A DNA stretch of 59,968 nucleotides, taken from Thermoprotei archaeon. GTDB lineage: Archaea; Thermoproteota; Thermoprotei; Thermoproteales; B15-G16. This document shows, piece by piece, positions 28,483 through 59,968 of the stretch; position 1 is the stretch's first letter; the number at the start of each line of letters is the position of its first letter. The notes beneath the pieces were generated by a model. The model saw nothing but the letters and a program-made list of their open reading frames with translations. It did no database searches and was not told where the DNA came from. The translations under genes were made by a program, and so were the position numbers. The stretch spans positions 1-59,968 of the forward strand of contig QMRC01000011.1 in assembly GCA_003649205.1 (NCBI GenBank). Reading direction: 5' to 3'.

Positions 28483-28486
28483 ATAG

Positions 28487-32053: not shown

Positions 32054-32937
32054 GCCATATCACCTACCAATAGCTTTACCTCACTAACTTCAAATTTCCC
32101 GTAACCAACTGATGTACGTGCACCTAAACCCAACTTACCAACCAACATAAGTGCTTTAATAATCTCCTTAGCAATGTCTTGAATCGAATAATCCTTCCCT
32201 GTCACTCTCTTCACCTCTAGTTTGAGGAATGGCGTAAGCGCTATGAATCCTCTGAAAACTATACCATCGGCAAGTGATACGTATACAACAGGATTAGGCC
32301 TCACCTTGCTCTCATCCAATTCGTCCTCTGTGTAATGTGGCGTAACTACATCTGGTAGCAGCACTCTGCCATACTCATTCTTAGTATTCACGAGATAGAA
32401 ATCCAGAAACAATACTGAAGTAGCTACAGATCTCTCATGACCCGGCTCTGGGCCAAATACTACCTCCTCTAATCGCTTTAGATCATCTGCAGCAATAACC
32501 CTCCAGCCATGTCTAATAGCTCCCTTAATGCTTGAACCAGGTATGTAGGGTACATTAAGTAATGGATCAAATGCAAGACCTATTTCGAATGCTGATCTGG
32601 CAAATGTAGCTCCAACACCGACTATTGCTCTACTTTTGAATTCCAATTTAACGTCAATCACGGTACAATCAAGTACCTTTAAAGCTTGAAGCACCTTGTC
32701 TAGGTAATTATTGACTATCTTGAATAGCTGCATACTGGAGTATGCTTTTAATAGTTTCTCAGCAAGTCTACGTTTTAGCACATTGTACTTCTCTTCGGCA
32801 CCCTGTACCTTAAGCTTCCATAGCTCACTACTCCAATGTGCTATCCATGTCCATAGATTGTGTTCAGTGCATGTAATGCGCTCTCGCTCAATAATCCTTC
32901 CTCCACCTAATCTCCCTCCAATCCTTTCATCCTTCAT
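32050..32937 (-). CDS. cmr6: type III-B Cmr6
   Basis: PYIPGSSIKGA, DVVTPHY, PNPV, GLGARTSVGYG. Confidence 0.9.
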   Translation of the reverse strand: MKDERIGGRLGGGRIIERERITCTEHNLWTWIAHWSSELWKLKVQGAEEKYNVLKRRLAEKLLKAYSSMQLFKIVNNYLDKVLQALKVLDCTVIDVKLEFKSRAIVGVGATFARSAFEIGLAFDPLLNVPYIPGSSIKGAIRHGWRVIAADDLKRLEEVVFGPEPGHERSVATSVLFLDFYLVNTKNEYGRVLLPDVVTPHYTEDELDESKVRPNPVVYVSLADGIVFRGFIALTPFLKLEVKRVTGKDYSIQDIAKEIIKALMLVGKLGLGARTSVGYGKFEVSEVKLLVGDMA

Positions 32938-32941
32938 ATCA

Positions 32942-34687
32942 TCACCTTAGTGCCTCTAATACAAACTCAAATGCTACCTCAAAGCACGTACGAATGAGGT
33001 CTAGTACATTAGCTGGAGGTTTCAATTCTTCGCATTTTCCTCGTCTAATCAGTCGTATAATTGATAACTCCCTCACAGGCGATAAACCACGTGTATCGCT
33101 AACCCAGACAAGCTCGCTTACTGGCCAATCCATAGAGATGGATCCCCATACAAGTACGAGTGCTCTATTAGTACGTGAATCATAGTTTAGTACACGCATG
33201 AATAGTGGACTAGGTCTACGTAAATTCATTCCAGGACTGTAGCCTGTGCCTCTTTGCTCTCTTGGTAAACCTAGAATCCAAGTATGCCATTTGCCATCTG
33301 CTACCTTAGGTGATCGACCACACAACTTCTTCCATGTAACCTTCATTGTTGCTTCGCCTATCTTCCTAAGTAAATGTGATAGCCCTGTTGTCTCCACTGA
33401 AATAACACGAATTCTCGTTATTTCTCTATCAAGTGTCAATGCGAAGTACCTAGGACATTTAGTGTAAAGTTCTCTTTTGAGCTTATCAAAGTCAATGCCT
33501 CTGCTTTTGCCAAACCGTTTAAGTGCGTTCTCTGCCTCCACTATAGCCGTCTCTATTAGCTTCCAGAGCTTATTTTCGGCTATCTCATGGTTCATCTTAT
33601 CAATTGGCTCGATGACCTCTTTCACTACTTTACGAATTTCATCGTATGGTATATAGCTTCTGTCTAAAAGTAATTTTAATGAACAGAAACCTCTTCGTGT
33701 ACATTGCCCATATCCGTATAGCAGTGCACTAAGTATTGCGGAGTATACCATTAGATAATCGAAGGACTTAATTGCGTCTAGTAGCACTCCAATTGATGGT
33801 AGACTTATACCCGCCTCCTTTAATGCCTCATAGTATCTTCTAGCATATTCTTCAAGAACCTCGTAGTTTAACCTTGTGATCTTTAGGTGGAGTTTACCCT
33901 GCTCTATTGACGATATCTTTTCATACATTATTTTGCGTATAGTCTCGGTAATGTTTTCGTACTTGATTTTCTCACATAGCGATGCAAGTACTAATACTAA
34001 CCTTTGTACTTCCTGTACCGATATCCGTCTTATTCTTTCCAATTGCTCCTTTATCTGCTTAAGCTCACTATGGATTTCGTATGTTAGCCCAAATTCGTAC
34101 CAGTAGTCAAGTAGCATGTCGACTATTCGTCGAATTCTCTGAATTGCCTGACGAAGCTTTTGTGTGTTTATACCTCCCCCAGACTTTAGCCACTCTATGT
34201 CCTTCAGGGTGCTTCTTTCACGTGTTATTAGCAAAGCTAAACGAGGTATTTCCTTAAAGCTTTCGATCTCATCCTCTTCAATGTATTTTTCCGGTATTAC
34301 CCTTGCATCGATGCTATATACTGAGCTTACTAGCTTTCCAGTTACTGGTACTTTGCCTCCCAGACATAGAACAAGTAGCTCCTTTACTAGCTTCTGGACC
34401 TTTTCATTACTAATGTCAACTCCGGCATGAATGGTTGCACCTAAGAGGAGGTGCTTCAGTGTATATCTTAGGACCCCTTTCACGCTTTTGCTCACGTACT
34501 GTTCAGACCAGGGATGCTCGGGACTGCCAATCACGTGTACTTCAAGAGGAGTTGCCTTATAGCTACCGATCCTCAGGGGCGTGATTATCTCAAATGTTAA
34601 CTCGCATACAGTCTTCAGACTTGTCTCCGCTAATTTACCTACCTCAGCTCTTATTGAGTCTATGTTAAGAGATACTTCCTGAACCAT
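32942..34687 (-). CDS. cmr1: type III-B Cmr1 (long form)
   Basis: ITPLRIGSY, KSVKGVLRY, GYGQCTRRGFCS, LGLPR, RRPSPL. Confidence 0.85.
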   Translation of the reverse strand: MVQEVSLNIDSIRAEVGKLAETSLKTVCELTFEIITPLRIGSYKATPLEVHVIGSPEHPWSEQYVSKSVKGVLRYTLKHLLLGATIHAGVDISNEKVQKLVKELLVLCLGGKVPVTGKLVSSVYSIDARVIPEKYIEEDEIESFKEIPRLALLITRERSTLKDIEWLKSGGGINTQKLRQAIQRIRRIVDMLLDYWYEFGLTYEIHSELKQIKEQLERIRRISVQEVQRLVLVLASLCEKIKYENITETIRKIMYEKISSIEQGKLHLKITRLNYEVLEEYARRYYEALKEAGISLPSIGVLLDAIKSFDYLMVYSAILSALLYGYGQCTRRGFCSLKLLLDRSYIPYDEIRKVVKEVIEPIDKMNHEIAENKLWKLIETAIVEAENALKRFGKSRGIDFDKLKRELYTKCPRYFALTLDREITRIRVISVETTGLSHLLRKIGEATMKVTWKKLCGRSPKVADGKWHTWILGLPREQRGTGYSPGMNLRRPSPLFMRVLNYDSRTNRALVLVWGSISMDWPVSELVWVSDTRGLSPVRELSIIRLIRRGKCEELKPPANVLDLIRTCFEVAFEFVLEALR

Positions 34688-34690
34688 GGT

Positions 34691-35254
34691 CTACCCACCG
34701 TACTTGGCATCTGTTAGTTCTTTGAGCACATTGTACATAGGTCTAAGGAAGTACATTACCAGAGCTAGCTCTGTTGTCGATAGCTCGGATATCTTCTCGA
34801 GTAGGTTCTCAACAGTTAAAGTACCCATACGTGGTACAGGACAATGTTGTGCTAGCCATTGCACAGTTGCGTAGAGAAATGCAGCATATCCAACGGCTTC
34901 ATCAAACTTTCCCTGTAACACACTTTTGACTTCTTCTATAGTTATCTTTCCATCCAGATACCCTGCTATAATGTCACATATACTGCATTCTACGCATCCT
35001 TGTCTATATTCTCTAACTTCTTTACCTAGCTTTTTGGCTATTTCTACTGGTACTCTAACTTTATCAGAGGCCTTGGCATATGCAAATGCTAAGGTAGCTA
35101 CAATACCTACATCCTCCATTAATTGTGGCAGCGTTCTGCATCGCGTACGGAATTTTTCACCATAATCCCGCTTATACTTGGCTAATTCATCAAATCGGCT
35201 TATTATTTCAAGGCAATGCTTTAAAGCGTCCTGCGATAACCTACGTATGGGCAT
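34691..35254 (-). CDS. cmr5: type III-B small subunit Cmr5
   Basis: FRTRCRTLPQLMEDVGIVATLAFAYAK, helical; position in the cmr operon. Confidence 0.85.
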   Translation of the reverse strand: MPIRRLSQDALKHCLEIISRFDELAKYKRDYGEKFRTRCRTLPQLMEDVGIVATLAFAYAKASDKVRVPVEIAKKLGKEVREYRQGCVECSICDIIAGYLDGKITIEEVKSVLQGKFDEAVGYAAFLYATVQWLAQHCPVPRMGTLTVENLLEKISELSTTELALVMYFLRPMYNVLKELTDAKYGG

Positions 35255-35260
35255 GCCTTG

Positions 35261-36286
35261 CTACACCCCAAGGAGCTTCACTATGCCACGACCTATCGTC
35301 TCATGACCTCCTAGGATTAGGTAGCCGCCTTCCTTCAGCTTTAGTTTCTCTGTAATGTACTCTTTGATCTCCTTCTCTCCTGGTTCTTTACCGGTTAGCT
35401 TCCTAAACTCTTCTGCCACATCTGCCTTTCTCACCATTGAGTATAGGAAAACTGTTACAAATATCGTATACTCTGGAACATTTTCCTCAAGCCAAGGACC
35501 TTCGTCAACTACCTTAATAGCCGGCTTGAGACGGACACGTGCTTGACGGATAATACTTCGCTCAATAATTTCACGACCAATTGTATCGGGAACTACTGCA
35601 AGACCAACTTCTGTCAATGTGCATTGCTTTGGTAGGTTATTTAGAAATGTATCCACTTCCTTTAGAGACCTTACCTTGAGCTTGAATTCTTCATTTAACA
35701 CAATTTCATTACCTATAGCTGTCTTTTGAAGGGCATTCGAGGTAACTATTGCAGTGTCTTCACTTAACTCTTGAGTAGTCTTTTCCAGCAATGCTTTAGC
35801 TATGTCGTAGTATCTCTTTGCGTCCTCACTACCATAGATGTCAAAATATAGCTTTGTATATGTTTTGAAATATCTTAGTAGTTGTGGTGTTGTAATATAT
35901 ATCCACACACCTCGCAGAGACCTAGCTGGAATTGCTAGCAACTTTCCCTCAAGTATGGCGATTGCACCTGTGAACATTTCTGTAACTCCACGTACTTCAG
36001 GAGGCGGACCAAAGAGAGCTTTAATTATAGGATTTCTGTTTGCTTCATTAATTGCCTCGTCTAACTTCTTACCATCTTTAATCAGCTTAGGTACTAATTC
36101 TGACACAAACCTTGCTCTCAATGGCCCCTTTAGACTCGATGGTGGTATCACTGGGTATCCAAACGCATCCCTCTGTATGGGTAGGTCAACTACACCTATT
36201 GCCCTTCCTGTACCCACGTGCACCGGTGTAATTGCCTCTATAAATACAAGAGAGGCTTCACGATACGTACCAGCGACCAAGCTCAA
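35261..36286 (-). CDS. cmr4: type III-B Cmr4 backbone RNase
   Basis: TPVHVGTG..VVDLPIQRD (catalytic Asp), PSSLKG, LGGHETIGRG. Confidence 0.95.
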   Translation of the reverse strand: MSLVAGTYREASLVFIEAITPVHVGTGRAIGVVDLPIQRDAFGYPVIPPSSLKGPLRARFVSELVPKLIKDGKKLDEAINEANRNPIIKALFGPPPEVRGVTEMFTGAIAILEGKLLAIPARSLRGVWIYITTPQLLRYFKTYTKLYFDIYGSEDAKRYYDIAKALLEKTTQELSEDTAIVTSNALQKTAIGNEIVLNEEFKLKVRSLKEVDTFLNNLPKQCTLTEVGLAVVPDTIGREIIERSIIRQARVRLKPAIKVVDEGPWLEENVPEYTIFVTVFLYSMVRKADVAEEFRKLTGKEPGEKEIKEYITEKLKLKEGGYLILGGHETIGRGIVKLLGV

Positions 36287-39600: not shown

Positions 39601-42600
39601 CCTCTAATACTTGTTTCAAGTGATCACATAGTTGATAAGGTTAAGAGAGGTGATAAGGTCTTTCAATGTTTGTTTCTGCTCCCTGGGCGTACATTGAGTA
39701 CTTCGGCTTCGGTTACCACACTTTCAATGTTTGTTTCACCGAGCTGATGTGTCAGTGGATTAAGGAAAATCTGTGAGATTTTTCTCTTTCAATGTTTGTT
39801 TCGATGCTGCAGCTGTTCGTGGAGACGGAGATGTTCGGTACAGTGGCTTTCAATGTTTGTTTCGCACGTGTACTTCCACATCACTCAGGAGTACATACTC
39901 GACCCACACAGTCTTTCAATGTTTGTTTCTCTACGTGAACCCACCTTAATCTTCTCCTTTTTCTCACTCATTCGGGGCTTTCAATGTTTGTTTCTGTAAA
40001 GGACCTAATACACACTTTCAGCCAACACAGCAGGAGGCTTTCAATGTTTGTTTCGATAGTAGCAATGCTGAGAGAAGGCTACAGTCCAAGCACAATCTTT
40101 CAATGTTTGTTTCGGCTCGTACTAGAGTACCTCATGTATGAGGGAACAGGAACAACACTCTTTCAATGTTTGTTTCTAGGCCACCCATTTGATGACCTAG
40201 AGAAGCTAGTTAGAGAATTCCTGCTTTCAATGTTTGTTTCGGAACAAACAAAGTTCTATGATGGAATTTCCGAGGAAATCAAGCTTTCAATGTTTGTTTC
40301 GGTAGAAGGTGATGGCTTTGTCAATACGTGAATCTAAAGTCACTTTCAATGTTTGTTTCTACGTATGCCCACGTTGTTTAGCAGAGCTCCAGTACGCAGG
40401 TCTTTCAATGTTTGTTTCACTAGGAGAATTAGGTACTGGGTCTTCAGGGCCATTGGCTGGATACCTTTCAATGTTTGTTTCTTTGCTTTACGGAAAAGTA
40501 TACACTGCAATAAAAGGACATATGATAATCTTTCCAGCTTTCAATGTTTGTTTCCCTGTTACAAAGACACTCAGAGAACATTTGAAGTTACCTCTTTCAA
40601 TGTTTGTTTCACTACAATGGCTGTGAGCCGCAGAGGACGTACATTGAACTTTCAATGTTTGCTTTCAATGTTTGTTTCGTTGCACGCGTTAATAAACAAG
40701 TGCCTTCTTGAGTTGTGCTTTCAATGTTTGTTTCGAGAGGTCTCTCAATACTTGTTGGTCTTCACAGGGATTATCGCTTTCAATGTTTGTTTCGGATTCT
40801 AGGATTAGGTTATATAACATGGACTGTGTTATCTTTCAATGTTTGTTTCAAGCAAATCAATGAGTTGCTGAGTGAGCTTAGGGAGCTCTTTCAATGTTTG
40901 TTTCCAGAGGAGAAAAAAGAGAAGAAAAAGAAAGTAATTGACCTTCACTTTCAATGTTTGTTTCAGCTCATAAAGTTCTTGTGTGGTTGCTAACTAAGGT
41001 AACTCCCTTTCAATGTTTGTTTCACTTCATTGCCCTAGTGAGGTTGTTCATGGAATTGCAATGGCTCTTTCAATGTTTGTTTCAACATGAAGTTGCGATT
41101 TTGAGAGATGGAAAGGTTATAGATCCTTTCAATGTTTGTTTCCAAGCTAAAGAATTAGTCAAAGAAAAAGAGCTAACAGTGATCTTCACTTTCAATGTTT
41201 GTTTCATTTGGGCGACCAACTGATTTACATTGTTCCTGAGAGACCCTTTCAATGTTTGTTTCGAGAAACTCAGACTTAGTAGGCTCGTAGTGGCTCACAC
41301 TTTCACCCTTTCAATGTTTGTTTCAAAAGAAAGGGATGCAAATAATAATTCACACCGAAATTGATTGCGGCTTTCAATGTTTGTTTCACAGGAAGTTATA
41401 CATTGCCGAAAGAGGGCATATGTTGATTCTTTCAATGTTTGTTTCAGGAACTGGGTGCTATTCGAGTGATGTCTGCTAGGCTCAAACTACCTGTTCTTTC
41501 AATGTTTGTTTCTCAGTAAGTACGGTAGAGGTGTACAGTGTACACCATTAATCATCTTTCAATGTTTGTTTCACGCAGTTCTGAGGCTACTGAGAGACCT
41601 AATGAAGTACGTCTTTCAATGTTTGTTTCACTAGCGTTTTTAACTGACAAGATAGTAAAGCTAGAAGACAAAGTCTTTCAATGTTTGTTTCTAAACTACC
41701 TACGAAAACTTTTCTCGTGAAGAAAATAGCTTTCAATGTTTGTTTCCAGTAGTTGATAAGTTGCGTAGAGTAACAACAGAATTACTAACTTTCAATGTTT
41801 GTTTCACAGGCTTGTTGAGGAATATAGAGGTGAGGTGTACGAGTTCTTTCAATGTTTGTTTCGACTTATCTCTAACCTGTCTATCTCTGTGTCTGTTAGT
41901 CCTCTTTCCTTCTTTCAATGTTTGTTTCGGTGCTTTCATTGCTGGTGTGGGTAGGGAGTACCTATTCCTCTTTCAATGTTTGTTTCACCCAAGTGAGTTT
42001 ACTGATGCAGTGAGGAAGCTAGCTGTGGTCTTTCAATGTTTGTTTCGTACAGGATCCTAAAGCGTTACGAAAGTGACCAGGAGTTTACTTTCAATGTTTG
42101 TTTCTAGGGACTTGATAGCGATTACGACACTTGCGCTACTGTTAATCCTTTCAATGTTTGTTTCGATATACTGTTAGCGACACGATGTTTGCTATGTTCC
42201 TCAAAATGTGCTTTCAATGTTTGTTTCAAGGAAGCTACGCTACAAGGCATTAAGTCACAGGTAGATACTTTCAATGTTTGTTTCGAACAGCAGGTTAAGC
42301 TACTCGAAGAACTCAGGAGAAGAGACTTTCAATGTTTGTTTCAGAAGTACCCAGAGAGAGAGGAGGAAGAAAAAGAGTCCTCATGGTACTTTCAATGTTT
42401 GTTTCAAATATCCAACAACAAGAGACGAGGAAGAACAGGAAGGGCTCTTTCAATGTTTGTTTCAACCAATGAGGGTTACAGTGGTTTACGAGTACGGGTG
42501 CAGTAACCTTTCAATGTTTGTTTCCAGAAGTACCGAGCAGACATCATAGTACCTGTACTACCACTATCAACTTTCAATGTTTGTTTCAAGTCTCATAAGA

Positions 42601-43540
42601 GTACGAAACGAATTGTCCTCAAAATTCGTCTTTCAATGTTTGTTTCGAGAAAATTGTAGTTCTGCTCACTTCACTACTTCTTACCTTAACTTTCAATGTT
42701 TGTTTCACGGAAGCTCTAGCTGATGTCCCTGTTGCAGTGTATCAAGACGGTACTTTCAATGTTTGTTTCTTTGCTTTACGAGAGGTGAGTAGACGTGAGG
42801 TACAGGGAATTACTTTCTTCACTCATGCTTTCAATGTTTGTTTCAAGAGATAGAGAGGGAACTAAAGAACATCGAAGACATGACCTTACCAAGCTTTCAA
42901 TGTTTGTTTCAATTCATCATAGGTGTCGAAATCTACAAACGTAACTTGTACTTTCAATGTTTGTTTCCATGAGTTGCTTCACCTAGTGTTTGCAGAGAAA
43001 CAGAAACGTCTTTCAATGTTTGTTTCGCGTGAACTCCTAGCTAAGTGTCTAGAAGAATTGAAAGCTAACTTTCAATGTTTGTTTCACGAGCTTTTTTCAT
43101 ACATCTCTAACCTCATTTCCAAGTCTCGTTCTCCTTTCAATGTTTGTTTCTTGAACCAGCCAAGGAATTTCGAATAATAGAATATACGAATTTGGTACCT
43201 TTCAATGTTTGTTTCATTCAGTTCTACGTACTCAGCACAGAGCAAGTAATCAGAATCTTTCAATGTTTGTTTCGGGTAGACAGTAATGGTGGAACAGACA
43301 TTGATTACGCTATTAGGGTCTTTCAATGTTTGTTTCGTCGGTACGGTTCCTGTCGTGATTACTCACGTATATGTCCTCGATGTGGTTCTTTCAATGTTTG
43401 TTTCACTCGACAACGGTACGGAAATCAAAGAGCTGAACTATGAGGTAAAGGGTAACTTTCAATGTTTGTTTCTTTGCTTTAAGCAATACAAATAGCAACA
43501 ACATACAGAGACACTTAAATACACTTTCAATGTTTGTTTC
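39601..43540 (-). CRISPR. CRISPR array, 17-bp repeat CTTTCAATGTTTGTTTC (crRNA sense GAAACAAACATTGAAAG), about 64 exact repeats
   Basis: exact repeats counted by eye from 39660 to 43524-43540; unique spacers mostly 38-51 nt; degenerate terminal repeat CCTCTAATACTTGTTTC at 39601; ATTGAAAG 3' end on the minus strand. Confidence 0.95.
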
Positions 43541-49948: not shown

Positions 49949-51805
49949 TTAGGATAGTAGCTCAATCTTCACTCTAAGTGGTATCTTTCTGTTTGGTGCT
50001 GCTAGTCCTGATATCAGTGCTTCACCAATGTCTAGGTCAGGTAGCATCTCTACGTCTTGCCTAATGACAGACTCACAGCTTCTCTGTATCTGTTCTTGAT
50101 CGTAGAAGTTCGTTACTCTGAGCGCTACTATTGTGCTGCATTGTGATAGTACAGTCATGTCTACTCTAGCTGGTCTCTGAGATATTATACAGAGTCCAAG
50201 TCCGTACTTCCTACCTTCAGTAGCTATCTTCCTCAAGATAGGTAGTGTCGTGCTCTCTCTAGCCTCTTCACCTGCTGGAGCATACCTATGAGCTTCCTCA
50301 ATGATGAGAAGCAGTAGGTCACCTTGTTCAGGTCTGTGTACCTCATCGAGATCTGGAAGTTCAGTACCTAAGCTCTTACTCAGCTCCTTGATGTAGTGTG
50401 TTGGCTTTGTTACACAGACTGTGAAGATCTTGTTTAGTAGGTGCGTGATAACTGGTTCAGGGTCTTGAAGTACTCTATGGAGGTCTATGCAGGTTACTGA
50501 TCTCGGCTCTAGTATCCTCAGTATGAGTGCTGTCTCTATGGTGTGTCGGTAGTAGGTTGATACGTAGGTGCTCTCTATGATTCTAAGGTCACGAGCAACA
50601 GAAGCTATTGACTGTGGGTGGTAACCTAGCTTCCTAAGTTCATTAAATACATCTCCCGACCCTAGTAGGAGCTGTGTTATCATCGATACATCATAGCAGT
50701 TCTCACCGAGGATCTGCTGCATACCAGACTCGAGATACTGCGTAGCTATGTCCTTAACTATGTCACTGAAGTAAGCTGATACACCCCTCCTAATAGCTAG
50801 TAATGTGCTAAGTGGTAGTAGTCTGGGTAGGTATAGGTTCATGAGGAGTACCCTACTACCTAGGATCTCCTTAACGAAATCTACCTCACTTGATAGTACA
50901 GCTGGGTTCTTAACATCAATCACCGCAATCTCTTCGAGAGGTACCTTAACTTGCTCGCTCAACTGCTCACTCAATGCCTTCAGCTCACTCTCTGAGGCAT
51001 ATGGTACTAGCACAGTTATCTTGAGATCACTACGACCTAGATCACTCCACAATTTAGATATTAGCGGTGTTGTACCACTCTCAACTAGTCCAAGACCTGT
51101 GTACTGACCCATGGGATCTAGTACCAGTACCTTACCCCTACTGTAGCTCTTGATGAAGCCATAGATCAGTCTCTTAGCTGTCTCCGTCTTACCAGCACCT
51201 GTCTGCGCTAGTATAGCTACGTGGTAGCACAATTTCTTAGGTACGAGGTAAACCTTGACATTTCTCTCATACGATAGGGTCCCCATGTAGATACCACACT
51301 TCATGTACTCATCTCCAAGTGACTCTGTGTGAATTACCTTCTCGAGAATCTCTGGACTCGGTCTAAGGACTAGAGATGTTGGTTGTGGTGGTATGTCTAC
51401 ACTGACTAGTTTCCACCTACAATCTTCTTCCTTCCTCAGTACACCTAGTAGCTGCAGCGTAGCTGTATAGGACTGTAGTTGCCTAGCTATCTGACTACCG
51501 GGTACCTGCTCAATTACCTTCCTAATTATCTCCGTTATGGCTTGAAGCTCTGTACGCTCCCTAGCTAACTGAACTAATTCAGATACTGAGGGTTGAACAG
51601 GAGATTGATATGGTCTTAAGTTAATTACCCTACAGAGGTAGTGCCTACTAACTGTCCTATCCTCAATGAAGAGGAGAGCACCTAGACCAACAACCTCACC
51701 AAACCCCATGTATAGCTGAGCGTAGACTGTTCTATGATCTCGTACTCTAGAGACAATACCGATACCAATACCTAACTCAGTACTCTGAGACATACCCAAA
51801 GACAT
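49949..51805 (-). CDS. herA: HerA-like ATPase/helicase
   Basis: N-terminal HAS-like barrel, HVAILAQTGAGKT, LDPMGQY, LIIEEAH, EGRKYG, SQRP. Confidence 0.9.
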   Translation of the reverse strand: MSLGMSQSTELGIGIGIVSRVRDHRTVYAQLYMGFGEVVGLGALLFIEDRTVSRHYLCRVINLRPYQSPVQPSVSELVQLARERTELQAITEIIRKVIEQVPGSQIARQLQSYTATLQLLGVLRKEEDCRWKLVSVDIPPQPTSLVLRPSPEILEKVIHTESLGDEYMKCGIYMGTLSYERNVKVYLVPKKLCYHVAILAQTGAGKTETAKRLIYGFIKSYSRGKVLVLDPMGQYTGLGLVESGTTPLISKLWSDLGRSDLKITVLVPYASESELKALSEQLSEQVKVPLEEIAVIDVKNPAVLSSEVDFVKEILGSRVLLMNLYLPRLLPLSTLLAIRRGVSAYFSDIVKDIATQYLESGMQQILGENCYDVSMITQLLLGSGDVFNELRKLGYHPQSIASVARDLRIIESTYVSTYYRHTIETALILRILEPRSVTCIDLHRVLQDPEPVITHLLNKIFTVCVTKPTHYIKELSKSLGTELPDLDEVHRPEQGDLLLLIIEEAHRYAPAGEEARESTTLPILRKIATEGRKYGLGLCIISQRPARVDMTVLSQCSTIVALRVTNFYDQEQIQRSCESVIRQDVEMLPDLDIGEALISGLAAPNRKIPLRVKIELLS

Positions 51806-53372
51806 ACCTCCTAGCTGTGAAATATCTGTGTACTAATGTAAGTGGTATTACCCTAAGTCTGAGGTACCTCTCGAGTACGTTAATGAACTCCCTCTCACTA
51901 GGTCTAATCCAGGAGTAGTAGTCAGCCATTAGTATGGGTGCAGGATACCCATGTACATTCACCTTGGATAGTGCAAGCACGTACCTAAGCGCTCTCTCTA
52001 GTTCGTCTTTCCTCAACTCTAGGTAGGCTGGGTACTCAACCCTTATGGGTGCTCTAATGGTTAGTAGTGACAGTGCTTTTCTAAGGGTACCTGGTTGGGC
52101 ATGTACTTCTCCTAGGATCTTGCTCTTGATGTAGTCTAGTGATTTAATCTCATCTAGGAATAGGTACGTGAACCTAATGTCGTATGGTCCTGCAAGTCCT
52201 CTATCCACGCTGTACACTATGTTACGTAGCTCTGTAGTGTAGTAACCGTAGTCTAGAGCTATCCTCGATAGTGAGTATGCTGTGTTTGGTAGCTTATCTA
52301 CATGAAACTCAACCAACTTACTACGCTTGAATCGAGGTGCTGATGACTCAGGTATTCCGTCTATGAGCAAGCCCTCCGTCGCCATCATGGTTAGTAGCTC
52401 CGCATCGGATATCCGTAGTTTAGTTCTGTGCTCTCTCACGTACTCCATAGCTACCCTAGTAGCGACGTAGTGCTCATCCACCGTAGCTCCTCGATAGGCC
52501 TCTATTAGCTGATTAAGCGTATCAAGCACGTAGACCGCGTGCTCAGTAATAGGTTCCTCATAGTACCTAACAACAGCATCCTCAAGCATGTTGCTAGCTC
52601 TCCTCACATCTCGTTGTAGCTCACGTACTAGTGACAGAACGGAGTACCTAATGAATAACCTACTCCTCCTAATATCTTCGAGAACCCCCATTGGGAATAC
52701 ACAGCTATCTCTACCTAATTCGAGGAGCTCATGTAGTATTGCTACGATTATCCTGGACGATACGTACCTTCTCCTACCTCCCTCCTCACTAGGCCTCACT
52801 GCACTGTAGTCATCCCTTACCTTTCTAAGGAACTCTACCACATCATCTTCATTCCAGCCAGCAACCATGAGTATCCTACGTAGAAGATCCTCAGGTATGT
52901 CGTAGGTACTCCTATCGTACTGAACTAACTGATGTACTAGTGGTCCATGTCTCAACACGAGAATCGGTCCAGTGAAGTATTTAGCAAGTCTCTCCTCTCT
53001 AGCTACCTTGAGCATTGTCGCTACTTCGAGTAAGTACCTGGCAGCTTCGTGAAATTCCTCCTGGGAGTAGAGTAGAATTGCTACAGGACCTATCCTGTCA
53101 CTCCATGGAATTCTGATCTCTTCACGAACTTCCCCACCAAGGACCTTCCTGCTGTAGATAGCTATCTTTGTTGCAGATACGTACTTCTCCTTTGAGAATA
53201 CGTACCCAGCATCAATAGCGTAGACGCCAGGAACCTCTTCACCGTGAAGCACCTTGAGTAAGGTATCTAGGTTAGTGAGGAGTTTGCTGAATCTCTCTAT
53301 AAGGTGTCGAGACCATGCTAGGACTGTGTACAGTACTGGGTCTAGTACTATGGGTTGTGGAAGAGAACTCAC
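51777..53372 (-). CDS. nurA: NurA-like nuclease (divergent)
   Basis: YAIDAG, LRHGPL, PIRVEYP, HGYPAPILMAD; overlaps the herA start. Confidence 0.75.
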   Translation of the reverse strand: MSSLPQPIVLDPVLYTVLAWSRHLIERFSKLLTNLDTLLKVLHGEEVPGVYAIDAGYVFSKEKYVSATKIAIYSRKVLGGEVREEIRIPWSDRIGPVAILLYSQEEFHEAARYLLEVATMLKVAREERLAKYFTGPILVLRHGPLVHQLVQYDRSTYDIPEDLLRRILMVAGWNEDDVVEFLRKVRDDYSAVRPSEEGGRRRYVSSRIIVAILHELLELGRDSCVFPMGVLEDIRRSRLFIRYSVLSLVRELQRDVRRASNMLEDAVVRYYEEPITEHAVYVLDTLNQLIEAYRGATVDEHYVATRVAMEYVREHRTKLRISDAELLTMMATEGLLIDGIPESSAPRFKRSKLVEFHVDKLPNTAYSLSRIALDYGYYTTELRNIVYSVDRGLAGPYDIRFTYLFLDEIKSLDYIKSKILGEVHAQPGTLRKALSLLTIRAPIRVEYPAYLELRKDELERALRYVLALSKVNVHGYPAPILMADYYSWIRPSEREFINVLERYLRLRVIPLTLVHRYFTARRYVFGYVSEY

Positions 53373-53460: not shown

Positions 53461-54519
53461 TTACTCACACCTAACTACGTAGGATATGTGTGGTTCACTA
53501 ACGGGTAGAGTGAGTACGTACTTACCGCATCCAGCAGCTGCTAACTGACCAACACCCATGTACTGACCAAGTATCAGTAACTGAAGAGCTAGCATACTAA
53601 TGCTTTTTCTCCAGAAGGATTGCTGCACCTCGTACACGAAGTAACCCCTAATGAATGTTCCGAGAACCCTCCTCTCATCACTAGCAATCATGTACTTACG
53701 TAGAACAACCTTACTCCTATGTGCGTATACCAACTTCGCATTAGCCCTAACAGCATCCCTAAGCTCTCTAGCTTCAAGCACTGAGAGTACTTGACCAACC
53801 CTGTGAAATGCAGCTAATTGACTATACCTCCTAGCTAAATTCATCACAATGGCGTGTAGTGGCGGCTCAGTTACTACCTGACGATTGTGCACTACCATGG
53901 TTGGTGTCGTGAAGTTCAGGACTATGTACCTAGGCCTTAACTCCCTAAGAGCAATTGCCTTCTTCTCAACTCTCCTCAGTAAATCATCACTTAGCACGGT
54001 AGTGGGTATTGGTTCCCTGATGATACCAGCATCGTCCCTATAGACTACCTGTACTGAACCCGTAAAGGGGTCAATTCTGAGAATTCTTGAGATAAAGAAC
54101 CTCCTCCTCTCACCATACCTAGCATCCATACCTAGACCCAACATACCACACTTCAGTAGTGATAGTATGATCACTGGCTCACATCTAAGCTCAATCAAGT
54201 ACCTAGGTGCTAGCAAGTAGAAGCCAAATACTATCTCACGACCACGGATGATAGCTGGTTCAACTGAGTAAGGTCTCGATACACCAGCTCTTGCACCTCT
54301 CTTAGCGAAATCAACATCATAGTCACAGCTCCTACTCTCGAAGAAGTGGTAGTAGATGCACCTCCCTCTCATGCAGCAACCACTGCAGTTTCGAGAACCA
54401 GTAACACAGCACACACTACGTAGAGCAGAACCAATCATCCCTCTAGTAGCAAATCCAGTGAATCCCCTCGGTCTAGTGTAGTCTCTAGCTAGAACACCAT
54501 GTACGAGGTACAGAAGCAT
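53461..54519 (-). CDS. cas6: Cas6 endoribonuclease (Cys-rich type)
   Basis: GFATRGMIG, CC..C..C...C.Y cluster, FTTPT, G-loop GVGQLAAAGCGKY. Confidence 0.85.
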   Translation of the reverse strand: MLLYLVHGVLARDYTRPRGFTGFATRGMIGSALRSVCCVTGSRNCSGCCMRGRCIYYHFFESRSCDYDVDFAKRGARAGVSRPYSVEPAIIRGREIVFGFYLLAPRYLIELRCEPVIILSLLKCGMLGLGMDARYGERRRFFISRILRIDPFTGSVQVVYRDDAGIIREPIPTTVLSDDLLRRVEKKAIALRELRPRYIVLNFTTPTMVVHNRQVVTEPPLHAIVMNLARRYSQLAAFHRVGQVLSVLEARELRDAVRANAKLVYAHRSKVVLRKYMIASDERRVLGTFIRGYFVYEVQQSFWRKSISMLALQLLILGQYMGVGQLAAAGCGKYVLTLPVSEPHISYVVRCE

Positions 54520-54563
54520 CTAACATAGTTCACGGTGAGAAAACCTATGTAAGTTAGTGCTAC

Positions 54564-55247
54564 GTGGAGTTCGGTGATGGTGATGGTGTGAGGCTTGGTT
54601 TACTCCCCGTTACAGTGTACGCTAGGGATCTCGTTGATTACCTCATATGCCCTCACCGCATATACTTAAGGAGGTACCTGTACCTACGTGGAGTAGTTAC
54701 GGAGTACATGAGTGTTGGTGGTGAGGTACATAAGCTCCTGTACATGTACCTTCAGGGACGTGACGTTGGGAGGGAGCTGGTTAGGTACGGGATTGATGTG
54801 GGTAAGTTACGTGAGGTCTATAGTGAGCTTAGGAAGTTAGGTGATGTGGAGTGTGAGGTCGAGGTAGGGTATGGGCCGCTTGCTGGTTCCATAGATTTGC
54901 TCGCTGGTGGGGTCCCTGTAGAGGTTAAGTACAGTACGAGACCTAGGTTCGGTGATGTGGTGCAGCTTGCATTCTACGTACTCTTACTGGAGCTCTCGAA
55001 GGGAAGGAACATATCTCGAGGTTACTTACTGTACCTCCCCTCCTGTAATCTCATTGAGATCAAGGTTGAGAGTTGGTTAAAGAGACTTGTTCTCGAGTTT
55101 TGTAAGGAGGTTCAACTCATTAAGTTAGGTCTCGTAGATTCTAGTCCTCGGTCGAGAAGAGCTTGCAAGGGGTGTGAGCTAGGTATGTACTGTAAATTCC
55201 GTGGTGAGGGGGGTGCCGAAGAGAGGTCTCTGGCTTCTCGTAGGTAG
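54564..55247 (+). CDS. cas4: Cas4 exonuclease
   Basis: YLICP, GGEVH, GSIDL, VEVK, QLAFY, CKGC.....C. Confidence 0.9.
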   Translation: MEFGDGDGVRLGLLPVTVYARDLVDYLICPHRIYLRRYLYLRGVVTEYMSVGGEVHKLLYMYLQGRDVGRELVRYGIDVGKLREVYSELRKLGDVECEVEVGYGPLAGSIDLLAGGVPVEVKYSTRPRFGDVVQLAFYVLLLELSKGRNISRGYLLYLPSCNLIEIKVESWLKRLVLEFCKEVQLIKLGLVDSSPRSRRACKGCELGMYCKFRGEGGAEERSLASRR

Positions 55248-56133
55248 GTACAGGGTAGGTGCTGAGAGTGAGCACCTCTACGTTCAGGAGCTTGATACCG
55301 GTAAGCTAGTGTATAGGAATGTTGCTCCTAGATTGTTGAGTAGTGTCTTGAGTACTGACCAAAGTCTCTTCACATCATCTGCTATCTGTCTACTAACGAG
55401 ATTTGAAGTACCATTGGTAGTTCTCTCTCGTGACCTTACTCAAGTTCTCTACTACGTTTACTGTGATGTATCTCCAGGGCTCTACAGCGAGATACTACTC
55501 AATCAGTACCAAGCTCAGGTAACCGACCTCATGCTTACGCTTCAGAAAAATCTACTAACTACAGCACTCAATTCCATAGCTAAAGCACTCGCCATCTACG
55601 GTACACGCCTAACTAGGCTTCTCCCAGTAATTCGAGCGTATAGAGCGCAGGTGGAGTGTAGTGAATTAAGTGAGGTACCTGAGCTAGATCAGGAATTCCT
55701 CAGTACCTTCCTTGAGTACGTGGCTAGAGAGCTAGATCTAGAACCTAACTACGTGAGTGATCTACATCAGAAACTACGTACCATTGCCTGTGGTGAAGTA
55801 CTTGCTGAAGTAGTTAAGGTAGGTCTTCAACCAGACATTGGATTAAGAACTGAACCGCTGGCCCTACTTGACGTACTTAAACCACTTACCTATATACCGA
55901 CACTTAAGACAGTACTTGATGTGTATGTAGTGAGTGGTGAGGTACCTAACCTACGTAATGTAGTCAAGAAGCTCTATGAAAACATATACTGTACACGTTA
56001 CAGGTGTAGTGATCAGGTAAGTAACTACGTGTGGTTCTTGAAGCAGTACCTAAGGAAATTACGTGAGTGGTTTAAAGAACTAACATCAGAGGTACCTACT
56101 CTAGAGCTGTATCCAGTGCTAGAGAAACCATAG
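55201..56133 (+). CDS. cas1: divergent Cas1 homolog, probably catalytically impaired
   Basis: N-terminal beta domain (FTSSAICLLTRFEVPLVV), NQY, GLQPDIGLRT matching GLDPxxGFLH without His, LALLDVLKP; follows cas4. Confidence 0.7.
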   Translation: MVRGVPKRGLWLLVGRYRVGAESEHLYVQELDTGKLVYRNVAPRLLSSVLSTDQSLFTSSAICLLTRFEVPLVVLSRDLTQVLYYVYCDVSPGLYSEILLNQYQAQVTDLMLTLQKNLLTTALNSIAKALAIYGTRLTRLLPVIRAYRAQVECSELSEVPELDQEFLSTFLEYVARELDLEPNYVSDLHQKLRTIACGEVLAEVVKVGLQPDIGLRTEPLALLDVLKPLTYIPTLKTVLDVYVVSGEVPNLRNVVKKLYENIYCTRYRCSDQVSNYVWFLKQYLRKLREWFKELTSEVPTLELYPVLEKP

Positions 56134-57297
56134 TTTCCTCGATTCAATAGCTACATCACCTAGACCTAACTTCGCAAATGTAGTTACCCTATGCGGGTAC
56201 AGGACAGTATTTGGTAGCTTAGTCCTGAGGATACAGGTACCCCAGTGAAGCTGAGCTAACCAATAGACATCTCTGGAGAGTGCTACAACATCAACATCCT
56301 CCCAAGACCAAGGCTCAACAACCTCCACAACAACAGGTCTCGGAGTAGCACCAAGGTGAGTAACCTCAGCATCGGGAATACCTAGAGTAGCAACAACAAC
56401 CCTACTACTACCCAGCCTAATCCAGGTACCTCTCCAAGGTTGCTGAGTTCTACCACCCATGAGGTTCAGCAACCTAATGGGTACAGACTTCATGACAGAA
56501 ACCATGACATACCTATCAATACCGAGATCACGAAGAACCTTCCTCAAACTATGAACCTCAGTAAAGTGGTATGGACCATCCCTATGAATGACAACTAAAC
56601 CACCACGGTACCTATCCTGGAGTACTTCAGCAACTAGATCGCCAACTTCAGGAGCAATCCTCTCAAGCGATGACCTCCTACAGAACCACTCAGTACAACC
56701 ACTAGACCTATCGTAGACGACAGTAGACACAACACCACCACCCACATCAAAACCGATGTAGAGATCACCGTAGAGACCACTGCGAACAGCCCAAGGAATA
56801 CCACCACACTTAGCAAAGACACCAACAGCAACATTAGCCAATACAACACCTCTAGACCTCAGGTACTTAACCGTGCTGTGAGTAACCATTTGACTGGGAA
56901 TACCATGACTAGCAATAACCTGCTTGAGGGGTATGTATGGATCGTCAGAGAACTGAACAGTGAATTCATCAGGGACGGTACACAGCACGAGATCAACATC
57001 GTGGATAGACCTAGCTAACTCAATAGCCTCACCATATGAGCTAAACTCAAGAACATCGAGAACTGTAACCTCACAACGAAACCACTTATCCAAACCACCG
57101 AAGACACCAACACCCTCAATTAAGTTCCTGAGAAACTCCCTAAACTCAGACCTCAAATCCCTATAAACCATACACAACATTGTTAAGCTAGGTAAGGACC
57201 TAAATGGACCATAACCAAGTTTGAATGCTTGCAGCGGATCTAGAGCGGTACCACTAGAGAACTCGAGTACAGGTCTAGAGAATATACCCCACCTCAT
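56119..57297 (-). CDS. ago: short prokaryotic Argonaute (MID + PIWI), about 392 aa
   Basis: MID PYIPLK..PSQMV..AKCGGIPW; PIWI YIGFDVG, IHRDG, K, P.RG, TPRP, LHW, KLPNTVLYPH; C-terminal LWFL; start at ATG 57297. Confidence 0.9.
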   Translation of the reverse strand: MRWGIFSRPVLEFSSGTALDPLQAFKLGYGPFRSLPSLTMLCMVYRDLRSEFREFLRNLIEGVGVFGGLDKWFRCEVTVLDVLEFSSYGEAIELARSIHDVDLVLCTVPDEFTVQFSDDPYIPLKQVIASHGIPSQMVTHSTVKYLRSRGVVLANVAVGVFAKCGGIPWAVRSGLYGDLYIGFDVGGGVVSTVVYDRSSGCTEWFCRRSSLERIAPEVGDLVAEVLQDRYRGGLVVIHRDGPYHFTEVHSLRKVLRDLGIDRYVMVSVMKSVPIRLLNLMGGRTQQPWRGTWIRLGSSRVVVATLGIPDAEVTHLGATPRPVVVEVVEPWSWEDVDVVALSRDVYWLAQLHWGTCILRTKLPNTVLYPHRVTTFAKLGLGDVAIESRKLWFL

Positions 57298-57352
57298 CAA
57301 GTAAGTAACTACGTGAGGTATCGATATCAGTAACCACACAGGTACACACTCT

Positions 57353-58009
57353 GTGAGTAGACTTAGATACGAAGTACTTAGGTACCTTCTGAGTAGGGAC
57401 AGAGCTACGTTAAGTGACCTACTCGGAGTATTTGGTCCACCGATAGTGGATGTTCTTGAGAAGCTGAAGAGGGAAGGGTACGTAGTAATTGAAGGTAATA
57501 CCGTTAAGTTGAGGGAATTAGCTAGGGAGGTTCTCACAGCACAGATACTTAAAGGACCAAAGCTAGTTCTCATTCCAAGAAACACCGAGAGCGCCACAGG
57601 AGGACCTACACTAGGTAGCTTCGCTGTGAAATTACCATCGAGAAACTACCGTGGAGTACCAAGGATGGAGATTACGGTACTACATCTAAGCTACGTAACT
57701 ACTGAGCAGTTGCTGGAGCTAGCTATCGACATCAGAAAGGTGTACAGTACCTTCCCGAACTGCGTGAGAGAACTTCAGCACCTAACTACACTCGTGAGGT
57801 ACGTGAAAGCACATAGAAATGAACTTATTAGGTCAATAGCACGTGAAATCGAGGCATTTATAGCATCAGTACGGTCATACCTCAGTAGGTGGAACTCACT
57901 AAAACCAGAGACCAGGGAGGAAGCTATCAAGTACGTGAGGAGCTACGGTGAGAAGCTGAGTAAGTTGATTACAGAGCTCTCGATAGTTGGTTCTAAGAGC
58001 GGTAATTAA
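57353..58009 (+). CDS. wHTH-containing protein divergent from ago
   Basis: ATLSDLL...VLEKLKREGYVVIEGNTVKL wHTH, then unknown helical domain. Confidence 0.65.
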   Translation: MSRLRYEVLRYLLSRDRATLSDLLGVFGPPIVDVLEKLKREGYVVIEGNTVKLRELAREVLTAQILKGPKLVLIPRNTESATGGPTLGSFAVKLPSRNYRGVPRMEITVLHLSYVTTEQLLELAIDIRKVYSTFPNCVRELQHLTTLVRYVKAHRNELIRSIAREIEAFIASVRSYLSRWNSLKPETREEAIKYVRSYGEKLSKLITELSIVGSKSGN

Positions 58010-59043
58010 CTAGAGGTTAACCAGTTCTTCAAGCTACGGCTCAACTTAATCCACCTACTCAAATAATCACTAGATCCAGTCTTCACAATGATACTCAATG
58101 GAGGGTCACTACAGCAATCTAAGCTCCTAGATATCGGTCCAGGAACCATCACAAACTCAAGATCTCTCGAACGAACCTTAATAGCTGATAAGAGGTACGT
58201 CAGTACAGTGAGTACAGTACCTACAGACTTGAAGCCTATATCGACCTCAGATGGTATCTGCTTTGGAGTAACGAGCTGAATAGGAAGACCGAGTAGATCA
58301 CTAGCAGAAGCAACGTCTTCCCTCGATGTTATTAGGATCGGTGTCACTCCTATACCGAACTGTGCTCTAATAGCTCTAGACAGTCTAAAGTAGAGACTAA
58401 ATACACCAATACCAACACCAATACCCAACGTGACCTCAGTAATGGGTAGTACCTTAGATGCATTGAGTAGATCGTGAAGTCCCAGAATAGTACGAGCTAA
58501 CTCGACATCTATTAAGTACTCACTAACCCTAAGACCAAGAGACTTAATGAAGTTCACCTGCAACTCATCAGGTAGAGGATTGTGTTCGTGAAGCAGCCTC
58601 ACTAGGTTCTCCTTAACATGATCAGGAATAGCAAAGTACGTAGTCTGTATCCTAGCTCTAAAGCTATGAGCTACAGAGAGCCAGTACCTAGCAAGAGAGT
58701 GACAGCAACCATACCACAGAGCTGTCTCATCAAACACTACAATAGGTAACCTCGAACCAGGTAGTGCGTATAGAGACTCGAGAAACTTAGCAAAGGAGTA
58801 CTTCAAGTCAGCAAAAGCAATATCCTCACCACTAAAGTGAAGACTCCACCACACAGCAACATCAAGTGGTAGTGAGCACCAAGACCAAGTACCTCCTCGA
58901 CTTCTCACTAACCTAAGTCTCTGTCCACTAAGTGAAATACGTAGTATAGACTCATCACCACATGAAATCTCAAACTCATCACTAACACTAAGCAAGTACG
59001 TAACTACAGGTAGTAAGTCACTAGACCTAATTCGTATTATCAT
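58006..59043 (-). CDS. degenerate PIN-like protein, paralog of 48879-49946
   Basis: VVFDETAL, ILITSREDVA; C-terminus LSRWIKLSRSLK vs LLNWIKLSKTIR. Confidence 0.6.
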   Translation of the reverse strand: MIIRIRSSDLLPVVTYLLSVSDEFEISCGDESILRISLSGQRLRLVRSRGGTWSWCSLPLDVAVWWSLHFSGEDIAFADLKYSFAKFLESLYALPGSRLPIVVFDETALWYGCCHSLARYWLSVAHSFRARIQTTYFAIPDHVKENLVRLLHEHNPLPDELQVNFIKSLGLRVSEYLIDVELARTILGLHDLLNASKVLPITEVTLGIGVGIGVFSLYFRLSRAIRAQFGIGVTPILITSREDVASASDLLGLPIQLVTPKQIPSEVDIGFKSVGTVLTVLTYLLSAIKVRSRDLEFVMVPGPISRSLDCCSDPPLSIIVKTGSSDYLSRWIKLSRSLKNWLTSS

Positions 59044-59531
59044 ACCTTCCTCTCGAGAATAACTATGTTTGAGTAGTACTTAGGAATATCAGTGAAAGGT
59101 AGGTTCTCAAACTCACGACTTCTAAGCGATAGATATGTCACGTACTTAGCATCGATATCGGTAGCTAACTTGTAGAGAGCTATGGACATGGGCTTAGTAC
59201 CAGCAGTAACATCAACAACACGAACTAGATCTCCATACCTCTCTACAACCCTCTTACGGAGCTTACTCCAGATATCGTAGATATCAAATGGATCGACCTC
59301 AACATAATCAACTTCAGGAACTTCCCTACCAAAGTACGTAGCAACCTCACGGAGACAACGCCCAATAGAGTCAATGAACCTAATAGTGTTGGAACTAGCT
59401 CCAAGCAAGACATACTTGATACGTAACCTACGTAACTCATCATGCATGAGGTAGTGAGCATACACATTAACAACAACAATAGGTGTAGCACCAACACAAG
59501 TAATTAACACAGCATTTGAATCCGAACTCAT
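59040..59531 (-). CDS. stand-alone CARF protein
   Basis: LITCVGATP, VDVTAGTKPMS, VTYL. Confidence 0.8.
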   Translation of the reverse strand: MSSDSNAVLITCVGATPIVVVNVYAHYLMHDELRRLRIKYVLLGASSNTIRFIDSIGRCLREVATYFGREVPEVDYVEVDPFDIYDIWSKLRKRVVERYGDLVRVVDVTAGTKPMSIALYKLATDIDAKYVTYLSLRSREFENLPFTDIPKYYSNIVILERKV

Positions 59532-59818
59532 AGGACGAACTCCCTCTCCAAAGACTCCCTTTCACCGTAATCCTCATGACAAATAACCATAGATCTACTA
59601 GAGCAAGAACTACACAGAGGGATAACCAGTACGTGAACCCTGTACATGCTAGACAAGACCTTCAACCTAAGTACTAATTCACTAAGTCTACCTGGAGGTA
59701 TATCAAGCTCAAAGACACTGTACTGAACCTCACAACCACCAAAATCACGAAGAAGTTCCCTCAACCTAACTCTACACTCCTCAGAATCCGTATCGTAGCA
59801 GACAATAACCCTAACCAT
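59528..59818 (-). CDS. cas2: Cas2
   Basis: VIVCYDT, LRDFG..VQYSVFE, IPLCSSC. Confidence 0.9.
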   Translation of the reverse strand: MVRVIVCYDTDSEECRVRLRELLRDFGGCEVQYSVFELDIPPGRLSELVLRLKVLSSMYRVHVLVIPLCSSCSSRSMVICHEDYGERESLEREFVL

Positions 59819-59968
59819 ACAGGAGATATCTAGAGACCGAACCTTGATATATCTTTAAGTAAATCTCAGTAGCGATGGTTAGGTACTACAGGATAAGGAA
59901 GGTAGGTAAAACACTAACTATCGAGGTAGACCTAGCTACATTGAGAAAGTACTTACCGAGAGAACGAA

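Follow-up and report, generated by a model that had tools for sequence, protein, structure and literature searches.

The window analysed here is the whole of contig QMRC01000011.1 (C11; 59,968 nt), from a metagenome-assembled Thermoprotei archaeon genome (GCA_003649205.1, here G000; 2.07 Mb in 31 contigs). An open reading frame (ORF) of 310 codons without a stop lies at 55201..56133 on the + strand and has no Pfam or NCBIfam match. We call its product Cas1-X, and a second Cas1 encoded nearby Cas1-A, both names being coined in this analysis. The 5′ end of the Cas1-X gene overlaps the 3′ end of cas4 (54564..55247, +; 227 aa; TIGR00372 at 68.1 bits with a cutoff of 65, PF01930 at 48.2 bits), so that co-transcription of the two is likely; the true start of Cas1-X is probably at 55204-55216. 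Around this pair, all on the − strand, are cas6 (53461..54519; 352 aa; PF10040, 41.4 bits), a MID-PIWI half of an Argonaute (56119..57597; PF02171, 39.7 bits; prokaryotic Argonaute (pAgo) model PDLC02436 of PADLOC, 170.5 bits), a CARF-domain protein gene (59040..59531; 163 aa; PF23400, 33.7 bits) and cas2 (59528..59818; 96 aa; PF09827, 42.8 bits; TIGR01573, 41.9 bits). We found that 55201..56133 encodes a genuine remote homologue of Cas1 which, as far as alignment can place the residues, is without at least two of the four active-site residues, and that it is encoded near an intact Cas1-A in every genome with enough context.

An earlier note on this DNA, made from the letters alone, had called the product a Cas1 homologue that seems to have lost its active site. 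The homology is borne out, through intermediates and structure. In direct comparisons Cas1-X matched no Pfam or NCBIfam family at E ≤ 1 and reached the cutoff of no curated Cas1 profile; a hidden Markov model (HMM) of 29 Cas1 proteins from the same order gave 5.2 bits, BLASTP against the two Cas1 proteins found by profile in the genome stayed at noise level (best E 0.40 and 3.3), phmmer against PDB chains returned solely the unrelated gp88 (E 1.1), and two marginal matches were seen to PADLOC Cas1 models (15 bits, E 0.0027, and 13.5 bits). An exhaustive phmmer search of 1.84 billion representative proteins matched Cas1-X to itself and to one other, P0002 (273 aa, E 4.6e-5; 36% identity over residues 7-129), and P0002 scores 43.5 bits against PF01867, where the cutoff is 22.3. 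A four-member clade alignment containing Cas1-X (A2) matched the alignment of the 29 Cas1 proteins (A3) by hhalign with probability 98.0 and E 2.1e-13 over 252 columns; the same clade as a profile against the PDB had A. fulgidus Cas1 as its top match, at an E of just 0.086.

ESM Atlas holds the exact Cas1-X sequence with a model of its own (predicted template modelling score (pTM) 0.85); its feature matches are Cas1 clusters in 30 of 30 cases, and the structural neighbours of the model are Cas1 proteins with template modelling (TM) scores of 0.79-0.83 over 291-299 residues. An AlphaFold2 (AF2) model built on alignment A4 has a mean predicted local distance difference test (pLDDT) of 77.4 and a pTM of 0.78; a single-sequence AF2 model reached a pLDDT of 38.5 and was discarded. 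The earlier note had proposed a structure search as a check, and each match listed by Foldseek for the AF2 model against the PDB is a Cas1 or a casposase (best 4n06_B, E 1.1e-8). All-against-all comparison with VIA-align gave 12 Cas1 or casposase chains at Z 10.7-21.2 (7mi4_A at 21.2), followed by the next chain at 5.7. We thus base the homology on the agreement of the transitive link through P0002, hhalign, and the ESM Atlas and AF2 models. The models give Cas1-X the two-domain Cas1 fold, with a predicted N-terminal beta domain and a predicted C-terminal helical domain; the former, at about residues 8-90 (55222..55470, +), is the best conserved and best modelled part, with pLDDT 92-96 in the blocks over residues 11-70.

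For reference numbering of the active site we used the Cas1 encoded on contig C1 (locus L001), whose E172, H236, D248 and E251 are common to all 29 Cas1 of the order. From the +3 spacing we infer that they correspond to E141, H208, D218 and D221 of E. coli Cas1, where alanine at any of the four is reported to abolish nuclease activity (PMC4046053). The strings quoted in the earlier note are all present in Cas1-X: PELDQEFLSTF at residues 160-170, GLRT at 214-217 and LALLDVLK at 220-227. GLRT indeed has no histidine; the catalytic His column is a gap in Cas1-X, GYLHIDRSGRPS having been cut to GLRTEP by a five-residue deletion (GL-----RTEP). This degenerate GxLH loop, G214-P219 (55840..55857, +), is found in alignments A4, A6 and L-INS-i, and AF2 confidence is lowest at residues 215-219 (pLDDT below 50). 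The only histidines in Cas1-X are H25 and H189, and only H189 is in the C-terminal domain. The DPxN..LNxGY motif is likewise absent as had been claimed, the DPVN/LNYGYG positions reading N183, S186 and Q190. LALLDVLK had been taken for a compressed LxxDLxE, which it is not: LALLDVLKPL aligns without gaps to LTLDLMEPL, and in the resulting D224-V-L-K227 (55870..55881, +) the Asp of the D-x-x-E pair, D248 or E. coli D218-equivalent, is kept as D224, and its Glu, E251 or E. coli D221-equivalent, has become K227. The first catalytic Glu is not placeable, with three alignments putting E161, D163 or E152 there and the EA..A..Y motif absent. Thus the suggested loss of the active site stands for the His and the second acid of D-x-x-E; the other Asp is retained, and for the first Glu the alignments leave the matter uncertain. 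Judged from these residues, Cas1-X most likely no longer catalyses integration.

We next give the extent of the family, which comprises nine sequences including the metagenomic P0002-P0004. A single-protein search of 61 relatives gave matches in seven at E ≤ 1; those in G000 and in G001, a member of the same genus, are real, and the other five are short with E ≥ 0.0059. Word-indexed searches with Cas1-X, P0002 and alignment A2, covering proteins of near length, returned P0001-P0004 only, and a search for related loci returned nothing beyond the contig of the same genus and a pair of short contigs from metagenomes. Six-frame profile search with A2 matched 13 of 120 genomes of the class; the four best new ones (G089, G085, G079 and G084; 45.6-72.2 bits) were examined, the seven weaker ones having 32.5 bits or less. 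Six-frame search of the phylum with A7 matched 73 of 401 genomes, mostly through ordinary Cas1 at 28-55 bits; scores of at least 135 bits occurred only in G089, G084, G000 and G439. Among these A7 matches we examined the top scorers and G308; G308 (69.5 bits) was rejected as a Cas1-X genome, having an ordinary Csa1-Cas1-Cas2-Cas4 set. Members occur in no fewer than five taxonomic families of archaea.

In an L-INS-i alignment of 43 sequences the full catalytic tetrad is found in none of the nine Cas1-X, as against six of six Cas1-A and 28 of 28 canonical Cas1 of the order. Among the nine, the His is kept in two (G079 and G439), the Asp in seven and the second acid in one, and the loop from His to Asp is shortened in all; the decay of the active site, as aligned, is uneven across the family. 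In the maximum-likelihood tree the X (support 100/99), A (98/95) and canonical (99/98) sequences each fall on one side of a single branch, and a smaller tree supports the X branch at 100/96. The position of the target within the X clade is unsure because its branch is long.

A check that the earlier note had proposed was a search of the genome for a second cas1, and it had supposed an active Cas1 outside the window. Two profile-detectable cas1 genes were found, on contigs C1 and C4, and the C4 copy, Cas1-A, is located shortly beyond the end of the window. C11 and C4 share an exact overlap of 123 nt, in which the end of C11 (59846-59968) is identical to the reverse-complemented end of C4. In the final 94 nt of the window (59875..59968, +) lie the first 31 codons of a gene for a 385-aa protein (100% by tblastn over residues 1-31); the gene continues on C4. 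A contig from one sequencing run, possibly the source of this DNA, covers 54500-59968 and then 3238 nt beyond the window end, about the same as the 3224 nt computed from the junction to the edge of an array on C4. The order across and past the window end is most likely cas2 (−), the 385-aa gene (+), Cas1-A (+), a second cas2 (−), a leader and a second array. Cas1-A of G000 is 321 aa long and has E144, H209, D221 and E224; its gene starts about 1 kb outside the window, some 4.9 kb after Cas1-X ends. The other end of C4 overlaps contig C15 in the same way.

The Cas1-A clade has the motif (R/K)(T/S)RRPP(R/K)D, and an intact Cas1-A is encoded within 5 kb of Cas1-X in all six genomes with enough context (G000, G089, G085, G084, G079 and G439). 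In G089, G085 and G439 Cas1-A is followed by cas2 and Cas1-X on the opposite strand, converging on it; in G084 the order is Cas1-X then cas2, again converging on Cas1-A; and in G079 Cas1-X is directly downstream of Cas1-A. The cas6 of the window is 34-36% identical to the cas6 genes in the G084 and G439 modules. A predicted heterodimer of Cas1-A and Cas1-X scored 0.86, the best of three controls scoring 0.02; of 157 solved complexes 116 attain the mark that was passed, as do 2 of 215 mismatched pairs, a rough calibration since our own alignments were used. The heterodimer runs agreed in at least 86% of contacts, with partner pLDDT of at least 84, and the predicted interface is formed through the N-terminal domain, at residues 51-67, 74 and 83-107 of Cas1-X.

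We lean, if not strongly, toward reading Cas1-X, a folded and very fast-evolving Cas1 paralogue, as a dedicated subunit without catalytic activity, which pairs through its N-terminal domain with the co-encoded, intact Cas1-A. In this scheme cutting and joining would fall to Cas1-A, Cas1-X would retain the N-terminal domain for dimerisation and supply structure, and the asymmetry between active and inactive protomers of a Cas1 dimer would have become fixed in two genes. The whole module (two Cas2, Cas4, Cas6, CARF and a two-piece Argonaute) would serve in adaptation at two arrays with a 17-nt repeat, beside a Cmr effector. Cas1 dimers have been reported to contain active and inactive subunits, the inactive one contacting Cas4 (10.1101/2022.05.30.494039), and in a type II-A system the non-catalytic Cas1 is reported to contact the repeat near a ruler element (PMC6895254). 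An inactive subunit paired with an active Cas1 is what the earlier note had offered as one option; the pairing is favoured by co-encoding in six of six genomes and by a predicted heterodimer that passed its controls, and it is the attached link to the 17-nt duplication that is not supported, as described below.

Several points weigh against this reading. The AF2 alignment is mostly canonical Cas1, and the Cas1 fold is therefore partly built into that model, leaving the Atlas model as the independent one. Several acidic residues are still present close by (E152, E155, E158, E161, D163, E165, E218 and D224), and with the acids that remain, Cas1-X may have rebuilt one. The Cas1-X proteins of G079 (L050 936-1721) and G439 (L065 1495-2289) retain both the GxLH His and the Asp. 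The target sits on a very long terminal branch (2.67-3.01 changes per site; the medians are 0.78 and 0.13), so relaxed constraint is possible, and the within-genus test of selection given below comprises four substitutions, which is weak evidence. C11 and C4 are joined by an overlap in the assembly graph of a metagenome-assembled genome rather than by closed sequence. Finally, the pass of the predicted heterodimer may merely reflect likeness to solved Cas1 homodimers, and this prediction, a single job, cannot separate an A/X heterodimer from an X homodimer.

The Argonaute in the locus suggests another role. The MID-PIWI ORF (492 aa) converges on Cas1-X, with a 15-nt overlap of the two 3′ ends; homology to relatives sets in near ORF residue 99, and the real gene is therefore about 400 aa. 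By tblastn it is 30-40% identical to genes adjoining Cas1-X in G084, G089 and G085. The 385-aa protein that begins at the window end matches the N-terminal parts of two PADLOC pAgo models (E 1.9e-7 and 6.7e-7), and ESM Atlas gave only weak structural leads for it (TM ≤ 0.41). Since the MID-PIWI and N-terminal matches fall in separate ORFs, the Argonaute is split between two genes, each of them adjoining one of the Cas1 genes. In G000 the N-terminal half overlaps the start of Cas1-A (gene order, locus L002) and is probably co-transcribed with it.

With these genes at hand, Cas1-X together with its Cas2 could serve chiefly to connect the two-piece Argonaute with the integrase, capturing or passing on as prespacers DNA fragments that Argonaute makes or binds and Cas4 trims; an adaptor for Cas4 or Argonaute was the other option in the earlier note. 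We regard this as possible, at a lower level of belief than the catalytic/non-catalytic pairing, with which it may coexist. In four of six loci (G000, G089, G085 and G084) Cas1-X has a MID-PIWI gene no more than 2 kb away, and in G089 and G085 genes similar to the N-terminal half lie upstream of Cas1-A (E 1.3e-9 and 2.0e-8). Argonautes in CRISPR loci beside Cas1 and Cas2 are on record (PMC6299218), as is a Cas4-family nuclease that cooperates with Argonaute (PMC12094033). Yet the 422-aa ORF of G084 at the position of the N-terminal half has no tblastn match to it, the G079 and G439 contigs end before an Argonaute could show, and adjacency within a defence island is weak evidence. A stronger form of the idea, in which Cas1-X is an obligate pseudo-enzyme that pairs with Cas1-A and docks Argonaute onto the integrase with its own Cas2, feeding DNA fragments made or bound by Argonaute into the arrays, we put forward as speculative and rather doubtful. 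If true, it would be a hard-wired link of innate Argonaute defence to CRISPR memory, conserved in several uncultured hyperthermophilic archaeal lineages.

That Cas1-X itself still has metal-dependent cleavage or integration activity we think improbable. In its favour, D224 is kept, the helix expected to carry the catalytic Glu has several acids, two relatives retain His and Asp, and the family is in an operon with cas2 in L011, G089, G085, G084 and G439. But no position of the tetrad is conserved in all nine members, the C-terminal domain of the target is left with H189 as its one histidine, the loop between His and Asp is shortened in every member, and the E. coli alanine replacements cited above indicate that loss of a single tetrad residue is enough to abolish nuclease activity there (PMC4046053).

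Nor does a decaying remnant under little or no selection fit well; we rate it as very unlikely. The branch of Cas1-X is the longest in the family, it has no curated profile match, and in G000 it has been displaced from its usual cas2 neighbour, all as a remnant might be. Against this, 310 stop-free codons are expected by chance, at the local base composition, with a probability of about 5e-8; the predicted fold is confident; the overlap with cas4 is operon-like; and the family persists across the archaeal families counted above. G001 has a copy that is 99% identical. The two strains are separated by 62 substitutions over 8223 nt, without an indel, and the Cas1-X ORF is intact in both; three of its four substitutions are synonymous and one is nonsynonymous (T120A), P=0.046 under neutrality with 24% synonymous sites. 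A second sequencing run has the same Cas1-X variant without indels, and in the sister clade the N-terminal 115 codons have 14 synonymous versus 6 nonsynonymous codon differences.

The arrays were also examined. In the window array (39660..43540, −) a 17-nt repeat, CTTTCAATGTTTGTTTC in + strand orientation, occurs in 65 copies; the reverse complement of the repeat ends in ATTGAAAG, and the array is therefore read from the − strand with its leader to the right of 43540. A second array, with 73 copies of the same repeat, lies on contig C4 at 116612-121111. Both have periods of 55-72 nt and spacers of about 38-55 nt, the columns flanking the repeat being without conservation, and their leaders have 178 nt in common at 80% identity. 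An ordinary 25-nt repeat on C1 also ends in ATTGAAAG. Each array has one spot where repeat copies are 13-19 nt apart start-to-start (40646-40685 in the window, 120084-120119 on C4), which could be a partial duplication of the repeat or a near-empty spacer. Tandem Repeats Finder missed the window array, and our literature searches, incomplete in coverage, found no report of natural 17-nt repeats.

The earlier note had tentatively tied the degenerate Cas1 to this short repeat and proposed a test of co-occurrence with short-repeat arrays; the tie is not supported, since the same module occurs with repeats of about 35 nt in G089 (45 and 15 copies) and G085 (4 copies, at a contig edge), so Cas1-X as such does not explain the short repeat. 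Least credible of the readings considered is Cas1-X as a ruler that sets the 17-nt length, for which the two arrays flanking the module with a leader in common and the repeat contact of the type II-A non-catalytic Cas1 (PMC6895254) would speak, but against which stand those same-module repeats and the confinement of arrays of this 17-nt repeat to G000 among 62 genomes of the order.

Compared with canonical Cas1 of Cas1-Cas2 and Cas4-Cas1-Cas2 systems, Cas1-X has the same two-domain fold, a predicted N-terminal dimer interface of the usual kind, and a place in a CRISPR locus with cas2, cas4, cas6 and arrays. It differs in falling under every profile cutoff, in the deleted His, the second acid replaced by Lys and the lost DPVN/LNYGYG, and in being encoded beside a separate intact Cas1 rather than alone. 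Its proposed role resembles that reported for the inactive protomer of solved Cas1 dimers, which does not cut, holds its partner and contacts Cas4 or the repeat; in those integrases both protomers are the same polypeptide, whereas here the non-catalytic role would sit in a separate degenerate gene. Cas1-solo group 1, as described by Krupovic et al. (2014; PMC4046053), likewise has no member with a full active site; by that description it is found outside CRISPR loci and in Methanomicrobiales only, which sets it apart from Cas1-X with its cas4, cas2, cas6, Cmr and two arrays. MpAgo-type loci and Methanopyrus kandleri are reported to encode an Argonaute alongside cas1, cas2, cas6 and Cmr genes, as this locus does (PMC6299218, PMC2743648); the present locus differs in that its Argonaute is divided between two genes and that its Cas1 proteins come from two clades, of which one is degenerate. 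In our literature searches, incomplete in coverage, this combination of a two-gene Argonaute with two Cas1 clades was not found, nor was any report of an intact Cas1 encoded together with a degenerate one, most subscription journals being outside the coverage. A casposase was also considered and rejected: the tetrad is incomplete and there is no polymerase gene among the annotated neighbours (terminal inverted repeats were not searched for).

To our knowledge, all described CRISPR integrases hold four copies of one Cas1, only two of them working. If the working and structural roles are split into two genes here, the module would offer a natural experiment in the function of the non-catalytic protomer, for example in prespacer holding, repeat contact or accessory docking, and the two-piece Argonaute alongside raises a testable idea on the origin of new spacers. 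Cas1 relatives can also drift below every curated profile, and profile-based surveys therefore miss such genes.

The rest of the window holds further genes. The type III-B (Cmr) effector genes Cmr3, Cas10/Cmr2, Cmr6, Cmr5 and Cmr4 were identified by NCBIfam at 27331..36286 (−); within the set is a 581-aa ORF (32942-34687, −) without NCBIfam match, and CARF or ring-nuclease-like genes are also present leftward, in the region of the Cmr set. Between the window array and the cas genes lies a tRNA-guanine transglycosylase-like gene (46159-47214, −; TIGR00449, 85.7 bits). Between the MID-PIWI half and the CARF gene are a 345-aa ORF (58006-59043, −) and a 218-aa ORF (57353-58009, +), both without significant family match in Pfam, NCBIfam or PADLOC; an Rfam scan of the window gave no match. 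Left of cas6 a 531-aa ORF without family match (51777..53372, −) overlaps a HerA helicase gene (49949..51805, −). The two-Cas1 modules of G089 and G085 have HerA at their flank as well, and that of G084 has a C-terminal HerA fragment there.

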